Assembly: GCF_963921235.1 (NCBI RefSeq)
Contig: NC_086097.1
Location: 84,694,001-84,758,000, forward strand
Reading direction: 5' to 3'
Origin: Mobula hypostoma
Lineage: Eukaryota
DNA: 64,000 nucleotides
In this document: piece by piece, positions 5,735 through 50,682 of the stretch
How positions within the stretch are numbered: position 1 is the first letter of the stretch
Layout of the letters: every line of letters starts with the position of its first letter
Made by a program: the position numbers and the translations under genes
Notes under the pieces: model-generated
What the model was told of the DNA's origin: nothing
The model's database searches: none
Seen by the model: only the letters and a program-made list of their open reading frames with translations

Positions 5735-6176
5735 CTGGCTACTGGCTACCATTTTTAATCTTTATTTGACAATTTAGTTGCTGTAAATGGCATAATCAGA
5801 TAATAGGAGATTGTTCAGCTAATTCTCATCCTGATCTCCTCCAATGGCTTGTGATAGTATATTTTCTAGCCAAGATTGGTAGGAAGTCATTTGAAGCTAG
5901 CGTTTTGGTGTTTTCTTCTTGCCTGCCTTGCCTCATTCCTTCCTTAATTTTGGGTCACTGAACTGATATTTGTGACATTAGTCTAGATTTGGGATGGAAT
6001 TGGAGAGCTTGCATTGCTCAAGGTAACCACTTGCAGTCATAGTGAGGGAGTTTATTTTAAAATACTTGTTTTGTGCCATGTGAAACCTCAAATCCATATC
6101 TTTTTTGGGGTGAGAGTGGTATTCTTGATGTAAATGCATTATTAACTAAATTGAAAACAGTATTCAGACAATTCAG

Positions 6177-9100
6177 ACAATGACGTGGGTAGGAAGAGTG
6201 AGGAGGTCCTGAAAGGTGAGTTTAGGGAGTTAGGCACCAAGTTAAAGGACAGGACCTCCAGGATAGCAATCTCAGGATTGCTACCAGTGCCACGTGCAGG
6301 CAGGTTTAGAAATAGTAAGGTAGAGCAGATCAACACGTGGCTGAAGACATGGTGCAGGAGAGAGGGCTTCAGATTTATAGATAATTGGGCAGTTTTCCAG
6401 GGAAGGTGGGACTTGTTCCAGCGGGACGGTTTACATCTGAACTGGAGGGGGACAAATATTCTTGCAGGTAGGTTTGCTAGAGAGGTTCCGGTGGATTTAA
6501 ACTAGATACGGGGGGGGGGGAGGGGAATCAGAGTGTGGGAACAGATGTAGGGGAGAAGGAAGAAAAAGAAAATAGTAAAGTTGTTCGCACCATTAGAGAT
6601 AAACAGAGAGTAAGAGGTGGAAAATTTCTAAAATGCATTTATTTTAATGCTAAGAGCATTATAAGAAAGGTGGATGAGTTTAAAGCATGGATTGATACCT
6701 GGAAGTATGATGTGGTAGCTATTAGTGAAACATGGTTACAGGAGGGGTGTGATTGGCAACTAAATATTCCTGGAATTAATTTTTTTAGGTGTGATAGAAT
6801 CGGAGGGACAAGAGGGGGAGGTGTTGCATTGCTTGTCAGTGAAAATATTACAACAGTGCTCTGGCAGGATAGATTAGAGGGCTCGTCTAGAGAGGCTACT
6901 TGGATGGAATTGAGGAATGGTAAAGGTGTAGTAAAACTTATAGGGTGTATTATAGACCACCAAATGGGGAGCGAGAATTGGAGGAGCAAATTTGTAAGGA
7001 GATAGCAGATATTTGTAGTAAGCACAAGGTTGCGATTGTGTGAGATATTAATTTTCCACACATAGACTGGGAAGCCCATTCTGTAAAAGGGCTGGATGGT
7101 TTGGAGTTTGTAAAATGTGTGCAGGATAGTTTTTTGCAGCAATACATAGAGGTACCAACTAGAGAAGGGGCAGTGTTGGATCTCCTGTTAGGGAATGAGA
7201 TAGGTCAGGTGACAGAGGTTTGTGTTGGGGAGCACTTTGGGTCCAGTGATCACAATGCTATTAGTTTCAATATAATTATGGAGAAGGATAGGTCTGAACC
7301 CAGGGTTGAGATTTTTGATTGGCGAAAGGCTAACTGAGGAGATGCGAAAGGATTTAGAAGGAGTGGATTGGGATAATTTGTTTTATGGGAAGGATGTAAT
7401 AGAGAAATGGAGGTCATTTAAAAGTGAAATTTTGAGGGTACAGAATCTTTATGTTCCTGTTAGGTTGAAAGGAAAGGTTAAAAGTTTGAGAGAGAGCCTT
7501 GGTTTTCAAGGGATATTGGAAACTTGGTTCTGAAAAAGAGAGATGTCTACAATAAATATAGGCAGCATGGAGTAGATGAGGTGCTTGGAATATAAAGGAT
7601 GTAAAAATAATCTTAAGAAAGAAATTCGAAAAGCTAAAAGAAGACATGAGGTTGTTTTGGCAAGTAAGGTGAAAATAAATCCCAAGGGTTTCTACAGTTA
7701 TATTAATAGCAAAAGGAGAGTGAGGGATAAAATTGGTTCCTTAGAGAATAAGAGTGGACAGTATGAGTGGAGCCAAAAGAGATGGGGAGATTCTGAACAA
7801 TTTCTTTTCTTCGGTATTCACTAAGGAGAAGGATATTGAATTGTGTAAGATAAGGGAAACGGGTAGAGAAGTTATGGAAACTATGATGATTAAAAAAGAG
7901 GAAGTACTGGAGCTTTTAAGAAATATACAAGTGGATAAGTCTCCAGGTCCTGACAGGATATTCCCTAGGACCTTGAGGGAAGTTAGTGTGGAAATAGGGG
8001 CTCTGACAGAAATATTTCAAATGTCATTAGAAACGGGGATGGTGCCAGAGGATTGGCGTATTGCTCATGTTGTTCCATTGTTTAAGAAGGGTTCTAAGAG
8101 TAAACCTAGCAATTATTGGCCTGTGAGTTTGACATCAGTGGTGGGTAAATTGAGGGAAAGTATTCTTTGAGATAGTATATATAATTATCTGGATAGACAG
8201 GGTCTGATTAGGAACAGTCAACATGGATTTGTGCGTGGAAGGTCATGTTTGACAAATCTTAGTGAATTTTTTGAAGAGGAAAGTTGATGAGGGTTAAGCG
8301 GTGGATGTTCAGAAGGGCCTTTGACAAGGTTCCACACGGAAGGTTAGTTAGGAAGGTTCAATTGTTGGGTATTAATATTGAAGTAGTAAAATGGATTCAG
8401 CAGTGGCTGGATGGGAGACGTCAGAGAGTATTGGTGGATAACTGTGTGTCAGATTGAAGGCCGGTGACTAGTGGTGTGCCTCAGGGATCTGTACTGGGTC
8501 CAATGTTGTTTGTTATATGCATTAATGATCTGGATGATAGAGTGGTAAATTGGATGAGTAAGTATGCAGATGATACTAAGATAGGTGGAGTTGTGGATGA
8601 TGAAGTAGGTTTACAAAGCTTGCAGAGAGCTTTAGGCCAGTTAGAAGAGTAAACTGAAAGATGGCAGATGGAGTTTAATGCTGATAAATGTGAGGTGCTA
8701 CATTTTGGTAGGACTAATCAAAATAGGACATACATGGTAAATGGTAGGGCATTGAAGAATGCAGTGGAACAGAGGGATCTAGGAATAATGGTGCACAGTT
8801 CCCTGAAGGTGGAATCCCATGTGGATAGGGTGGTGAAGGAAGCTTTTGGTATGCTGGCCTTTATAAATCAGAGCATTGAGTATAAGAGTTGGGATGTAAT
8901 GTTGAAATTGTACAGGTCATTGGTGAGGCCAAATTTGGAGTATTGTGTACAGTTTTGGTCACTGAATTATAGGAAAGATTTCAACAAAATAGAGAGAGTA
9001 CAGTGAAGGTTTACTAGAATGCTACCTGGGTTTCATCACCTAAGTTACAGAGAAAGGTTGAACAAGTTGGGTCTTTATTCTTTGGAACATAGAAGGCTAA

Positions 9101-44198: not shown

Positions 44199-45507
44199 CT
44201 AGGCAAAGGAGAAATGTGATCTATAAATTCGCGGGTGGCAGCACTGTGTTGGTAAAATCTCAGACGGTAATGAGGAGGAGTACAGAGCTGACACATGTAG
44301 CCCCCTGGTAAGCCTCAGGCTCGCTCAGCTCACTTTTGTCTAGGGGGAGCAGCCTTCAGCCCTGCCATACTGGGTAATCAAGTTTGTGTAGATGCTGTGT
44401 GATGTATCCCACCCCGCCAAATAACAGACAATACACCGTATACGATTTACAGAATGCAATTTATAGATCTTACTGGAACTAAGTAATTAATAGAGATGCA
44501 ATACAAAAGGAAAAGTAAAAGGCGCCAAACTTATCAGAGTTCAACCACTTCGTGCACAACCGTTGGAGCTCAGTTATCGGGGTCCTCTTTCTACCATGTG
44601 ATCTCCAACCTCCTCGACCCTCTGCCTGGGACCAACCACAGTGGTCGACCAGATGCTCCACACGAGTCTGTCCTCGTCTCGTCTCCTTGCCGAAGACCCT
44701 GGGCCTCGGAGTCCCGCACAGGGTCCGTTCCGTCGCCCAGCTTACAGCATCGTGACTCCTCTCTCTGTCCCCATTGCGCCTTCTCCCCCAAAGCCCGCAA
44801 AACAATAGCTTACAGACACACAAGAAAGAATAACAATTATTCCAATTGGTTAGCAAATGAATCCAGTTCTCGTTATCAGTAATTATAACCCAAAACAAGC
44901 TGCTAGAGAGAACCACTGTCTCAGCAGTTAACATCACAGAGAAGCCATTTTATTTTAACATAACAAAGAAGCTATTTTATTCACCTTAGCAGTAACATAA
45001 AAGAAGAAACCCCTTACACTCTCCCCCCACCAAATTTAGTCATGTTCTCATAACTTCTAAATAACTTGCCGACCCTTCCTGCAGACACAAAAATCCAATC
45101 CAGGTACAAACAGTGACATTGCTCCCAAATGGTGGTCCTTACGCCCTGTTCTTCAGGCGCTACATAGGCCAACCTATCTGGGAGTTTCCTAATCCTCCGA
45201 GACCTCTGTACCCCCTCACCTAAACCCTTCAGGCTCGGACACTACTAGGGATACCTCGGGCCTGCTTGCCAAATCCTCTCTCAATCTCTTACTCGTGCCC
45301 CCACTGCAACTCGGAACCCCTTGTCCCGTGTCCAGGGCCCTGCTTCTTTTCCTTAAGGGTCCTGCTGTAACCCAGACTGCCCACAGATAACCCTCCTCAC
45401 TACCCCTAACTCAGTGGGGGAAGGGCCAAAAGTCTCTTCATCTAACAAGGGGAAGTTAGCGAAAGGCACATCCAGCACTCATCCTTCGAATCTGTATTCT
45501 TTCCCAT

Positions 45508-45957
45508 TTCCTCGATTGGTAGCTGCTGTTTGATTTTCTCCCAACTGAAGCACTTAGTCTGGGCTGCCTGGGCAGCCTCCTGCAATCGAGACGTCAGTTT
45601 CTTCTCTGACTCCTCTGCCTCCAGCCGCAGTCGCAGCAGTTCGGACACACGCTTCGTGTTCATCTCCATCTGGAATGCAATTACACCACCAGCTTCTTCC
45701 AATCTGTTCTGGATCGATTTCTTGAGTTTCTGCTGATCCTTTCGAAGGTTGGTCATTGTTCCGTCTCTCTGGATTAATTCATCAGTAAATGACCTCCATT
45801 TCGGCGCGGAATTCCGTTTCCCCGTCTCCACTTTGACAAGCGTGGACTCCAATTCTTCAGTGGTTGTCCCGAAATTGCAGCACTCAGTCTCCAGCCTGCA
45901 TTTCTGAGCATTCAGTTCAGCGATGCAAATTTCCTCTCTCAGGAGTTGCGTTCTTCT
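45508..45957 (-). pseudogene. Captured sarcomeric myosin heavy-chain rod fragments inside Gypsy pol
   Basis: ELNAQKCRLETEC..ELESTLVKVE, RLEEAGGVIAFQMEMNTKR and KKLTSRLQEA..KCFSWEKIKQQL match three separate myosin II rod segments recalled from memory. Confidence 0.85.
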
Positions 45958-47810
45958 CTAGACCTGGCACTCGTCCAAAGAAAGTTTTACTTCGTTAATC
46001 CCTAGTCGACTGGGATCCGTCACTCGCCTCACTTCATAGTCTTCCAAGGCGAATCCCAATGCTAGGAGATCATCCAAATACACCAAAGCTCCAAACACCT
46101 CCACATCCCCCATGGTCTTCCCCATGTCCCACGGGAAGGTTGCAAGGGCTCCGGATATGTCCTGTGGCATCTTTTCAGACCATAAGAATCCTAGGGGATT
46201 TATAATGGCCGTCTCCTCCTTGTCAGCCTCACTCATCGGGATCTGGCAACATCCACTCCTCAGATCCAGCACATTAAACCATGTCGCACCACACAAACAG
46301 ACCATCGCGTCTTCGGCCCTGAGGACCGTATTCTGGTTACTGACAGTGCGCCTGTTCAGAGTCCTATAATCCACTCACATGCTGCCTATGTCTTCCAAGT
46401 CTGCAGAGGCCAGTCACCGCGACCTCTCTCTCACCGAGGTGTCTTCAGCGGTCAACTCCCCTCCCTCGTGGTATTTTGGAGCGTCTACTAAGAGGGTCTC
46501 ACCCTCAGATACTTCCCCCGGGCCGTACTGCCAGTGGCTCTCGTTCAAATTCGGTACAGGCCCAATGTTACTACACACGTCCTCACAAGCAACTCGAAAC
46601 ACTGGGTGCACAGACAATACCCCCAAACAGCTCTCACCCGCCTCCTCATCAGCGGGGTGTTGGTCCCCTCCTGAATCGAAACACTGCCCGTCGCACCAGG
46701 GTCCGGACACATCAGCGTTAACGATTCACGACCCTCTGACACCCACACATTGGCCTCCAAGAATTCCAGTGTCACTGACCAATAACCGTCGTCTGGATAA
46801 TCACTGGCACTGGTACCCCAAATCTCCAGTGCCCTTAATGTTGTCAAGGGTAAATGCTTCAGAAACCAGTTGTAAAACGAACTGTACAACAACTTGACCT
46901 GCGCCCCGGTGTCAAGGATGGCGTTAGCATAGCTTCCACCTATCCGTAACGACACCCGAGGGTGTGGTCCCTCTAAGCTTTCAGGAATAGGGTCTGTTCC
47001 TTTTGGGAGTTCCTTGGTACATTGCTGGGAATGTGCTCTCCCAGAGACCCCAAGCCGTTCCCCCACTGAGCCTCCACTAAGTTTCCCGACACCTCTCTGA
47101 TCAGCTGAACAACTGAGAGAGGGGCTGATCCCCTTAAATGATCGATGGCACTGCAAGCAATTTAGCTGCCCCCCCCCCAGCCAGAGAAGATGCACTGAAA
47201 GCTTTTCCCCAAACTCCTGACACAGGTAAGGAAAGCCCCCCAGGTGCTGCACTTTACTTCCGGTCGAACCAGACGTATTTTCCCCCGCTTTCAGGTGACT
47301 GGCAGCTGTCACTACGGGCTAATTGACCCTGACAGTTCTAACACCGTCACCAGCCCGCCTACTCAAACTTTCAACCTATCCCTGCCGCTCTCCCTCAACC
47401 GAGCACTGCTACTCATCTAACAACTGAGAGATCTGCTCCGCCCACCTCTCGTACGCCTCCGCCCCTTTAGGGGTGGACATTATCCCAAAAACCAGGTGGA
47501 GCCTGCCATAGCTACAACATTTATTCACAGACACTACCTCCGAATCAGACCACTCTTTCCTCTCTCTCCTAATAGTGTGGCCAGCCAATGGTCCCGCATC
47601 ACCTGGGGCACCAATAGACACTGGCAGCCCCACCACCATTTCGTCAGCGCTAGTCTGAACTCGAACAAAGACCTCCGGGGTACCAACAGCCACCCCACGC
47701 AACACGCATGCAGTAATAACCAGCAATCCCACAGAGGCACACCAGCTTTCCATCCCAGCAGCATGCATAATTTAAAGAGGGCAATCACACAGCTTCCTAC
47801 AAAAATCCAT

Positions 47811-47828
47811 ATCCTGGATGAGCCCCAA
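47811..47828 (-). other. Primer-binding site, tRNA-Pro-like
   Basis: ttggggctcatccaggat vs PBS-Pro tgggggctcgtccgggat (15/18; two mismatches are CpG-type), 3 nt inside the 5' LTR boundary. Confidence 0.75.
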
Positions 47829-48085
47829 CAATGTAACCCCCGGTAAGCCTCAGGTTCGCTCACCTCGCTGTTGCCTAGGGGTAGCAGCCTTCGGCCCTGC
47901 CAAACTGGGTAATCAAGTTTGTGTAGATGCTGTGTGATGTACCCCATCCTGCCAAATAAAAGACAGTATACCATATGCGATTTACAGAATACAATTTATA
48001 GATCTTACTGGAACTATGTAATTAATAGAGATACAATACCAAAGGAAAAGTAAAAGGCGCCAAACTTATCAGAGTTCAACCACTT

Positions 48086-50038
48086 TTGTTAGGCACACCT
48101 GAGGACTGGGAGAAATTCAGAGACCAGCAGAGGAGGACAAAGGGCTTAATTAAGAAAAGGAAAAAAGATTATGAGAGAAAGCTGGCAGGGAACATAAAAA
48201 CTGACTGTAAAAGCTTTTATAGATATGTGAAAAGAAAAAGCTTGGTTAAGACAAATGTAGGTCCCTTACAGTCAGAAAAAGGTGAATTGAACAAGGACAT
48301 GGCAGACCAATTGAATAACTACTTTGGTTCTGTCTTCACTAAGGAGGACATAAATAATCTTCTGGAAATAGGGGACCGAGGGTCTAGTGAGATGGAGGAA
48401 CTGAGGGAAATACATGTTAGTAGGGAAGTGATGTTAGGTAAATTGAAGGGATTAAAGGCAGATAAATCCCCAGGGCCAGATGGTCTGCATCCCAGAGTGC
48501 TTAAGGAAGTAGCCCAAGAAATAGTGGATGCACTAGTGATAATTTTTCAAAACTCTTTAGATTCTGGATTAGTTCCTGAGGATTGGAGGGTGGCTAATGT
48601 AACCCTGCTTTTTAAAAAAGGAGGGAGAGAGAAACCGGGGAATTATAGACCGGTTAGCCTAACATCGGTGGTGGGGAAACTGCTGGAGTCAGTTATCAAA
48701 GATGTGATAACAGCACATTTGGAAAGTGGTGAAATCATCGGACAAAGTCAGCATGGATTTGTGAAAGGAAAATCATGTCTGACGAATCTCATAGAATTTT
48801 TTGAGGATGTAACTAGTAGAGTGGATAGGGAGAACCAGTGGAAGTGGTGTATTTGGATTTTCATAAGGCTTTTGACAAGGTCCCACACAGGAGATTAGTG
48901 TGCAAACTTAAAGCACATGGTATTGGGGGTATAGTATCGATGTGGATAGAGAATTGGTTGGCAGACAGGAAGCAAAGAGTGGGAATAAATGGGACCTTTT
49001 CAGAATGGCAGGCAGTGACTAGTAGGGTACCGCAAGGCTCAGTGCTGGGACCCCAGTTGTTTACAATATATACTAATGACCTAGATGAGGGAATTAAATG
49101 CAGCATCTTCAAGTTTGCGGATGACACGAAGCTGGGCGGCAGTGTTAGCTATGAGGAGGATGCTAAGAGGATGCAGGGTGACTTGAATAGGTTAGGTGAG
49201 TGGGAAAATTCATGGCAGATGCAATTTAATGTGGATAAATGTGAGGTTATCCACTTTGGTGGCAAGAACAGGAAAACAGATTATTATCTGAACGGTGGCC
49301 GATTAGGAAAAGGGGAGTGCAACAAGACCTGGGTGTCATTGTACAACAGTCATTGAAAGTGGGCATGCAGGTACAGCAGGTGGTGAAAAAGGCGAATGGT
49401 ATGCTGGCATTCATAGCAAGGGGATTCGAGTACAGGAGCAGGAAGGCTCTACTGGAGTTGTATAGGGCCTTGGTGGGACCACACCTGGAGTATTGTGTTC
49501 AGTTTTGGTCCCCTAATCTGAGGAAAGACATTCTTGCCATAGAGGGAGTACAAAGAAGATTCACTAGATTGATTCCTGGGATGGCAGGACTTTCATAAGA
49601 TGAAAGTCTGGATGATCTAGGCTTATACTCATTGAAATTTAGAAGATTGAGGGGGGATCTTGTTGAAACGTATAAAATCCTAAAGGGATTGGACAGGCTA
49701 GAAGCAGGAAGATTGTTCCCGATGTTGAGGAAGTCCAGAACGAGGGGTCACAGTTTAAGGATAAAGGGGAAGCCTTTCAGGTCTGAGATGAGGAAAAACT
49801 TCTTCACACAGAGAGTGGTGAATCTGTGGAATTCTGTGCCACAGGAAACAGTTGAGGCCAGTTCATTAGCTATATTTAAGAGGGAGTTAGATATGGCCCT
49901 GGTGGCTAAAGGGATCGGGGTTATGGAGAGAAGGCAGGTACAGGGTTCTGAGTTGATGATCAGCCATGATCATACTGAATGGCGGTGCAGGCTCGAAGGG
50001 CCGAATGGCCTACTCCTGCACCTATTTTCTATGTTTCT
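48086..50038 (+). mobile_element. CR1 LINE ORF2 (RT), 5'-truncated, inserted in the Gypsy 5' LTR
   Basis: KSPGPDGLHPRVLKE, DFHKAFDKV, PQGSVLGP, FADDTK; tail tttctatgtttct; LTR sequence resumes with duplicated actt. Confidence 0.95.
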
Positions 50039-50682
50039 ACTTCGTGCACAACCGTTGGAGCTCAATTAACGGGGTCATCTTTCCAGCATGCGATCTCCTC
50101 CGATCTCCTCGACCCGCCGCCTGGGACCAACCAAGGTGGTTGACCAGACGCTCCACACAAGTCTGTCCTCGTCTCTTTTCCTCACCGAAGACCCTGGGCC
50201 TCGGACTCCCGCTCAGGGTCTGTTCCGTCGCCCAGTTTACAGCATCGCATCTCCTCTCTCTGTCACCATTGCACCTTCTGCCCCAAAGCCTGCGAAAACA
50301 ATAGCTTACAGACACACAAGAAAGAAAAACATCAATCCCAATTGGTTAGCAAATGAATACAATTCTCGTTATCAGTAATTATAACCCAAAACAAGCTTCT
50401 CAGCAGTTAGCATCACAGAGAAGCCATTTTATTTTAACATAACAAAGAAGTCATTTTATCCACCTTAGCAGTAACATAAAAGAAGAAACCCCTTACACGT
50501 AGATCAACTGGTTGAACGATGTTGGAACAACAGATTGTGGACTTCGGGAATGGGAAGTCTGGAAAATGCACATCAGTCCTCATTGAGGGAGGTCAGCAAT
50601 GGAAAGGGTTAACAGCTTTAAATTCCTGGGTGTCAACATGTCAACAACTAGGAGGACCTTCCTTGCTCCCAAAATATTTATG

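Follow-up and report, generated by a model that had tools for sequence, protein, structure and literature searches.

A Ty3/Gypsy-type element in the genome of the ray Mobula hypostoma carries, in frame with its reverse transcriptase (RT), a condensed piece of a myosin II heavy chain rod that was copied from spliced host mRNA. The element lies in the 64,000-nucleotide stretch of DNA that we analyzed (NC_086097.1, assembly GCF_963921235.1, positions 84,694,001 to 84,758,000 of the forward strand; hereafter the window, within which all positions below are numbered unless a contig is named). The explanation that accounts best for the evidence as a whole, and that we think very probably correct, is a non-autonomous Ty3/Gypsy family which captured a spliced myosin rod and then lost parts of it, and of itself, by deletion.

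On the minus strand, an RT-fragment open reading frame (45958-46374) ends KLSLDECQV followed by a TAG at 45958-45960, and the same frame then remains open for another 171 codons (45442-45957), about 150 of which the original prediction, made from the sequence alone, had described as a condensed myosin rod. A phmmer search of this frame against PDB sequences returned 13 matches at E≤1, 12 of them to myosin II heavy chains or MYH7 constructs (best E 1.7e-4), in three colinear stretches: i) frame residues 6-101 correspond to MYH7 927-1019; ii) residues 67-118 to MYH7 1131-1182; and iii) residues 74-148 to MYH7 1349-1423. The three predicted segments agree with our borders to within a few codons, except that the first four codons assigned to myosin (RRTQ, 45946-45957) derive from RT; and the segments are indeed colinear in myosin, where they had been placed roughly 150-200 residues apart and where 143 and 211 rod residues prove to be missing between them. 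Heptad a/d hydrophobic periodicity in the frame is pronounced (z 5.3, equaled in 0 of 500 shuffles; z 11.4 for a real paralogue), and 25 of the 30 named Atlas matches are to "Myosin tail" clusters.

A search with the Pfam profile Myosin_tail_1 (PF01576), proposed beforehand as a check, never reached the cut-off of 38.1 bits: the window frame gave no match and its relatives 12 to 16 bits (12.1 for family copy L062), but the host exon alone is also below the cut-off, at 16.0 bits. Although Pfam does not class the window frame as a myosin tail, as might be expected if its resemblance were only that of one coiled coil to another, the 228-codon frame of L062 matches MYH7 994-1144 at E 5.9e-23, with all 12 of its matches to myosin II, and DNA identity to a host myosin exon (below) reaches 86-89%. 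The similarity is to myosin II and goes beyond generic coiled-coil resemblance, as had been claimed, and establishes that the frame originated from myosin.

The copy in the window is a decayed, defective derivative of a Ty3/Gypsy element, in which LTRs, a PPT and a Gypsy-type RT can still be recognized. Its parts, given in ascending coordinates and therefore from 3′ to 5′ for the element, are:

44296-50497, minus strand: the whole LTR element, carrying the myosin-bearing frame.
44296..45018, minus strand: 3′ LTR, TG...CA, 723 nt, a direct repeat with 47831-48085 plus 50039-50497.
45019..45031, minus strand: PPT adjoining the 3′ LTR, GGTGGGGGGAGAG, immediately upstream of the LTR.
45032..45441, minus strand: 3′ internal remnant of the parent element; its DNA is 67% similar to that of an autonomous relative at the 3′ end.
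45442..45507, minus strand: end part of the fusion frame, probably from the integrase C-terminus, shortened here by a private indel.
45508..45603, minus strand: myosin segment 3, KKLTSRLQEA..KCFSWEKIKQQL, about MYH7 1394-1423.
45604..45693, minus strand: myosin segment 2, AGGVIAFQMEMNTKRVSELLRLRLEAEESE, corresponding to about MYH7 1153-1182 and taken from mid exon E, which is 390 nt long.
45694..45945, minus strand: myosin segment 1, LLREEICIAELNAQKCRLETECCNF...SIQNRLEE, about MYH7 927-1009.
45946..45960, minus strand: last RT-derived codons, RRTQ, and the private TAG (45958-45960); the RT of family copy L063 continues here as ...CQVWRKMQFM...
45961..46374, minus strand: shortened reverse transcriptase, with YLDD at 46069-46080, KLSLDECQV at 45961-45987 and a further motif at 46252-46281.
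46545..47318, minus strand: protease-bearing frame, with ILDTGAQ at 46899-46919 (RVP E 0.0011, 19.7 bits; cut-off 20.7).
47319..47830, minus strand: gag-like remnant, with RERKEWSD at 47544-47567; related gag frames match PNMA.
47831-48085 and 50039-50497, minus strand: 5′ LTR in two halves, separated by a LINE.
48086..50038, plus strand: 5′-truncated LINE RT fragment inside the 5′ LTR, with open reading frames matching RVT_1 at 35.1 and 77.6 bits.

The PPT and LTR expected downstream of the frame are thus present. Comparison of the two LTRs shows 68 differences in 706 aligned sites (mismatch fraction 0.096, 90.4% identical; JC distance 0.103), and in 13 of 19 other copies the alignment ends within 5 nt of 44296. 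We sought a target-site duplication of 4-6 bp at the window copy and found none (the flanks are ACACA and CGTAG), an absence that may reflect decay at about 10% divergence. Changes since insertion (LTR distance 0.10) include the private stop, the tail indel and the LINE in the 5′ LTR. Protease (PR) and the shortened RT are all that the window copy keeps of the order PR-RT-RNase H-integrase; the RT lacks about 33 aa of the fingers as well as the thumb, and neither RNase H nor an integrase core is present, in line with the first description, which saw no motif of either. In keeping with their shortened frames, the window RT and that of family copy L020 score 17.6 and 27.9 bits with Pfam RVT_1, below the cut-off of 29.6, and the PR-RT part is 42-49% identical to the Ty3/Gypsy polyproteins P0002, P0006 and P0009. 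Protease frames of the family are 39-49% identical to the N-terminal part of P0002 and P0006. The gag piece of the window had no match in a Pfam search; the gag frames of two relatives match PNMA at 24.9 (L049) and 26.2 bits (L063), around the cut-off of 25. The fusion-frame tail, which in other copies continues ...NTDSKDDVLDVWYMLPF...GRASCG..., weakly resembles the VKVLHRNHILP region of four autonomous polyproteins (E 0.07-2.5), and a remnant of the pol C-terminus, PDRLAYVAPEEQGV, is found in another frame at 45140-45181, where the frame of the autonomous relative reads PERLTYIAPGEQGV.

We searched the window's own genome with Myosin_tail_1 for a donor and located several MYH genes. Those on contigs C45, C36 and C68 (at 25.4 Mb) match poorly and are of the wrong type, but a sarcomeric paralogue in a tandem cluster on contig C68 (15.38 Mb) covers all three segments. 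Segment 1 crosses the junction ATENK|VKNL of this paralogue, between 45814 and 45813, and the 93-nt GT-AG intron found there in the gene is absent from the element; further along the gene, at distances of about 1.0 and 5.8 kb, are the counterparts of segments 2 and 3, segment 2 matching its exon at 80% over 55 nt (blastn) and segment 3 beginning no more than a codon away from the junction EELEEAK|KKLAQ. A search with the paralogue exon led to the closest counterpart of the captured sequence in the genome, another exon, C68:14524969-14525196, which has 76 codons and AG/GT borders; we call it exon A of the donor candidate, and letter the exons of the paralogue A to E. With the window it shares 34 identities in 45 aligned residues, compared with 14-21 in 40-52 for the exons of nine other MYH paralogues, which were tested against four copies; at the DNA level it is 86% identical to the window over 131 nt, and 82-91% identical to all 24 family copies compared (89% for L010). 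The donor is a divergent sarcomeric MYH gene, for which the candidate consists of one exon: no further donor exon was found within 8 kb downstream of it. A protein search with this exon returned nothing at E≤0.001 among 377 candidates, and the Atlas goes no further than "Myosin tail"; the MYH16/MYH15/MYH7B-like type suggested in the original prediction is a candidate label only.

Family sequence extends beyond both ends of exon A without introns, and the source must therefore have been spliced RNA. Relatives of the window copy cross further junctions in the same intronless fashion (B|C, C|D and D|E, as well as the junction upstream of exon A), bringing the introns found to be absent to those at both ends of exon A, by reference to the donor candidate, and those at A|B, B|C, C|D and D|E, by reference to the paralogue. 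The prediction of mRNA capture is borne out, segment 1 itself running across the 3′ end of the donor-candidate exon and the ATENK|VKNL junction: the capture took place at the RNA level, with host myosin mRNA as the source.

Neither the myosin insert nor its junction with RT is peculiar to the window. In the 3.48-Gb assembly, the 516-nt stretch has 850 first-look candidates; 40 matches were scored, every one of them 85-100% identical to it. The layout RT-myosin-tail-LTR recurs in all 19 other copies fetched, which were sampled from the best-scoring matches only; each of the 19 has a sense codon at 45958-45960, and the TAG, whose absence from a family consensus the original prediction had proposed to test, is private to the window copy; several copies have fused PR-RT-myosin frames of 253-583 codons. 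A 36-nt word spanning the RT-myosin joint of the window subfamily is found, when up to 3 mismatches are allowed, at 37 places, and a 36-nt word spanning the diagnostic joint of a second, long subfamily at 180 places; the reversed control words occur at none. The long form came to light through P0001, a 432-aa "uncharacterized protein" of Mobula birostris, in which an RT fragment is joined to a longer stretch of myosin and which was the sole longer protein homologue found. Searched against the window's genome, P0001 gave 3730 first-look candidates, of which 97 were scored with matches 78-95% identical; 21 of 92 near-full-length matches contain no stop, and the total of 122 stops (mean 1.33) is consistent with an open founder frame that decayed at random. 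The long subfamily is the younger and retains more myosin; the window copy belongs to an older one. Contigs from four public sequencing runs, representing three organisms, cover the whole stretch, and in these contigs the loose ends at the long-form exon A deletion run on into exon A sequence, so the undeleted form must also be present in those runs.

We consider it extremely improbable that nothing was captured and that a processed myosin pseudogene or a segmental duplication simply came to lie beside Gypsy debris. Intronless MYH stretches do exist elsewhere in this genome (L021-L024) and might be thought to supply such a neighbor, but these and three other loci (L021-L025, L028 and L032 were compared) resemble neither the element nor Gypsy proteins; the same joints recur at 37 and 180 dispersed places with controls of 0; and the similarity between copies stops at the LTR ends. 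Dispersed copies with common joints, bounded by LTRs, are those of a chimera that spread as a non-autonomous family, as the original prediction had suggested.

The parent of this family was a Ty3/Gypsy element with a PNMA-like gag, in which myosin took the place of the integrase core. Among 24 polyproteins found, those ranked first to eighth, with lengths of 1446-1975 aa, combine the domains RVT_1, RT_RNaseH, rve and Integrase_H2C2; PNMA is present as well in one of these eight and in three others lower in the list, and the named matches include "transposon opus" and "Gypsy retrotransposon integrase-like". The order PR-RT-RNase H-integrase is present in P0002 to P0009 and partly so in L062, which has PR, RT and RNase H. 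In L062, the RT fingers are retained, and P0002 residues 621-821, which cover the RT connection and RNase H, stand immediately before the myosin; the latter begins one exon ahead of exon A and extends through A, B, C and D into E, but without segment 2. With RNase H before the myosin and an integrase-like tail after it, the cargo must have replaced the integrase core. L063 has the RT thumb and only the start of RNase H, followed by myosin from the middle of exon A, with the RT part and the RNase H-myosin part in different frames.

The original capture joint was therefore at the end of RNase H, not in RT as first proposed, and the RT-myosin joint of the window is a secondary deletion. That joint reads RT ...CAG|CTC CTG... 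myosin, with a microsimilarity of about 3-5 nt; a 13-residue peptide resembles KVKLELEAQV of the donor. The window subfamily has lost a piece of RNase H and 143 rod residues, RT being joined directly to the middle of exon A; the long subfamily has lost most of exon A and 10 exon D residues and, from RT, 26 residues and the thumb. What is missing from the window is retained in the long subfamily, L063 and L062, which demonstrates the structure of the family and the order of its deletions and upholds the earlier view that frame-preserving deletions followed capture. We also considered deletion by multiples of the 28-residue or heptad period of the rod and rejected it, 143 and 211 being multiples of neither.

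We propose that the chimera could have arisen as follows. A spliced sarcomeric myosin mRNA would have been packaged together with element RNA, and reverse transcriptase would have switched template twice, from element RNA to myosin mRNA and back, so that some 500 rod codons (about MYH7 900-1430) came to stand where the integrase core had been, sharing a reading frame with RNase H on their upstream side and with the C-terminus of integrase on their downstream side; the product between two LTRs would have been gag-PR-RT-RNase H-myosin-integrase tail. Without integrase, such a chimera would have needed a helper, and it was presumably mobilized by being copied in trans by autonomous relatives; as it spread, it lost pieces of RT, RNase H and myosin in about a dozen nested deletions, giving rise to several subfamilies. 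The genome contains many autonomous relatives: the 32 candidates that were scored have identities of 57-68% with P0002 in long matches. We were unable to find a helper with matching LTRs, the one autonomous 3′ end examined being only 67-76% similar to the chimera. We infer template switching by analogy with retroviral transduction and with the LTR-mediated chimeras of Tan et al. 2016 (PMC5131818).

We infer 13 rearrangements, each of which can be observed in natural copies within a frame that has no interruption; all of them, like one 12-nt indel, are multiples of three in length. Rod sequence is itself codon-periodic and rich in Glu, Lys and Leu, and frame retention could thus be a by-product of microhomology-driven deletion, helped by luck, with myosin as a neutral passenger; we regard this as unlikely, though less so than the other alternatives discussed here. 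Controls give it some substance: repeated 4-7-mers 30-700 nt apart are in frame in 47-71% of cases in myosin cDNA, repeated 4-9-mers in 55-92% in the paralogue cDNA, and 4-8-mers in 47-52% in the myosin part of L062; the RT remnant evolves neutrally; and the protease motif of the long form reads DPG in all three copies in which it is intact (a fourth is deleted there). Seven of the events, however, fall in non-myosin sequence, where repeated 4-7-mers are in frame in only 28-37% of cases and where seven in-frame outcomes would have a chance of 0.35^7, or about 6e-4, and at both capture joints RNase H, myosin and the integrase tail are each still read in their native frame. Taking the six myosin-internal events at about 0.6 and the seven others at about 0.35, the joint chance is about 3e-5; about a dozen frame-preserving nested deletions are more than chance allows.

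A frame kept open need not be kept for its protein. The dN/dS comparison suggested at the outset, made for six pairs of long and short forms and resting on a few dozen changes, gave 0.8-1.1 for the RT remnant, 0.3-0.9 for myosin and 0.3-0.8 for the tail, and amino acid constraint on the coiled coil is weak. One might nonetheless suppose that the coiled coil is a working dimerization or oligomerization module that replaces integrase and brings element RNA into helper particles. In favor of such a role, the frame is intact across all rearrangements, some myosin sequence is retained in every lineage seen, dN/dS is lower in myosin and tail than in the RT remnant, and the heptad a/d pattern is strong (z 4.6-5.3, 0 of 500 shuffles as high, compared with z -0.5 for the PR-RT part). 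Yet that pattern would be expected by inheritance alone at about 12% divergence; the rod pieces kept differ by lineage, L062 having no segment 2, the long form lacking most of exon A and the short form 143 residues; neither 143 nor 211 is a multiple of 7, so that heptad register is broken at the joints; substitution counts are small; and the pooled dN/dS of 0.62 relative to the donor exon, in which non-independent copies are counted, includes the purifying selection on the donor itself. We judge a working coiled coil improbable on these grounds; a predicted complex of two copies of the long-form myosin part, with a score of zero and an uncertain partner fold, speaks neither for nor against it.

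We lean instead towards the view that the frame was kept unbroken by selection for a genomic RNA that can be translated, and not by selection on the protein, and wish to stress that the evidence for such selection is indirect and that the differing frames of L063 count against it. More speculatively, and with considerable doubt, we suggest that defective Gypsy elements of the ray lineage might succeed only with a translatable gag-pol-type frame, regardless of what is encoded, for which the host cDNA would be a filler or a coiled-coil substitute for integrase; if this were true, it would point to a cis-acting, translation-dependent step in LTR-retrotransposon replication, for instance one by which the genomic RNA evades nonsense-mediated decay or is packaged during translation.

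Acutely transforming retroviruses offer one precedent: in their Gag- and Pol-onc fusions, spliced host cDNA replaces replication genes, and the viruses depend on helpers. The myosin family is similar in that host cDNA is fused in frame to the coding sequence of a replication-defective element, but differs in being a Ty3/Gypsy retrotransposon with no env seen and a structural coiled coil as cargo, and in showing no sign of conferring a growth advantage; it is a germ-line repeat family, not an infectious agent. ETn and MusD form a pair consisting of a non-autonomous LTR element and its autonomous partner. MaLR and MERVL are named as another such pair in PMC5131818. Like the non-autonomous members of these pairs, which combine LTRs and packaging signals with a defective or foreign interior and outnumber their autonomous partners, the chimera described here is defective within, but its foreign part is an identifiable host cDNA in one long gag-pol-type frame.

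The closest parallels are the LTR-mediated chimeric retrocopies of animals described by Tan et al. 2016 (Genome Res 26:1663, PMC5131818). In that paper, a piece of spliced mRNA replaces part of the internal open reading frame, both LTRs are retained, some chimeras retropose again as non-autonomous elements, and the mechanism proposed is microsimilarity-dependent template switching in the particle; maize Bs1 is cited there at 1-5 copies, and the chimeras are single or low copy. The ray element shares with these chimeras the position of the host sequence inside the element, the replacement of part of the open reading frame, the absence of donor introns and secondary retroposition as a non-autonomous element; unlike them, it is found at 37 and 180 junction places (with 850 and 3730 first-look candidates), in several subfamilies forming a nested-deletion series, and in at least three organisms. 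Among the titles and abstract openings that we covered, outside subscription journals and Repbase, we found no myosin-carrying LTR element and no Gypsy chimera from a ray or manta. A chimera of this kind is already known; what is unusual is the scale, the preserved intermediates and the retention of frame.

The family indicates that LTR-mediated mRNA capture can seed a vertebrate repeat family of hundreds of copies or more, and successive stages, from RNase H with a long rod to the shorter forms, coexist in one genome as a readable record of its whittling down. The combination of an intact frame with little amino acid constraint hints, in a form that can be tested, at a role for the translatability of genomic RNA in non-autonomous LTR elements. 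Copies are also being annotated as proteins, as P0001 of Mobula birostris illustrates, and could inflate or confuse counts of myosin genes in rays and mantas.

The 5′ LTR of the minus-strand, non-autonomous Gypsy chimera is interrupted by a 5′-truncated LINE, and since the LINE sits within the LTR, its insertion is later than that of the chimera; the LTR is followed by a putative primer-binding site.

Window 47813-47830, minus strand: TTGGGGCTCATCCAGGAT, putative primer-binding site immediately following the 5′ LTR
Window 48086-50038, plus strand: 5′-truncated LINE whose RT frames score 35 and 78 bits for RVT_1

The window's own assembly (G000) holds autonomous Ty3/Gypsy relatives at G000:C76:3021651-3025655 and 31 further places. 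Their open frames are very long, reaching 2780 codons, and there are 50,860 first-look candidates; their Gypsy group is a major part of the genome.

Myosin heavy-chain (MYH) sequence lacking introns was found in stretches L021, L022, and L023/L024, whose coverage of the myosin-tail profile reaches 407 positions and which contain several stops.

G000:C18:48745314-48746731: L021, intronless MYH stretch

Because no similarity to the chimera element or to Gypsy proteins was found in these stretches or their 1.5-kb flanks, they are probably ordinary processed MYH pseudogenes. L023 and L024, both on small contigs, look like one sequence assembled twice. Sarcomeric MYH genes form a tandem cluster at G000:C68:15308885-15895763, where one 82-codon exon recurs at intervals of about 75 kb: 5 copies share 100% protein identity, and additional copies, on both strands, are 79-99% identical.

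Closely downstream of L062, the older and longer chimera copy, lies a second coiled-coil-like frame (...LEVDLERRRLEASNKQREIELAIAQ), and beyond it a Gypsy-type RT of another kind; together these may represent an unrelated adjoining element.

L062:4958-5536 and 5771-6365: coiled-coil-like frame, then different Gypsy-type RT
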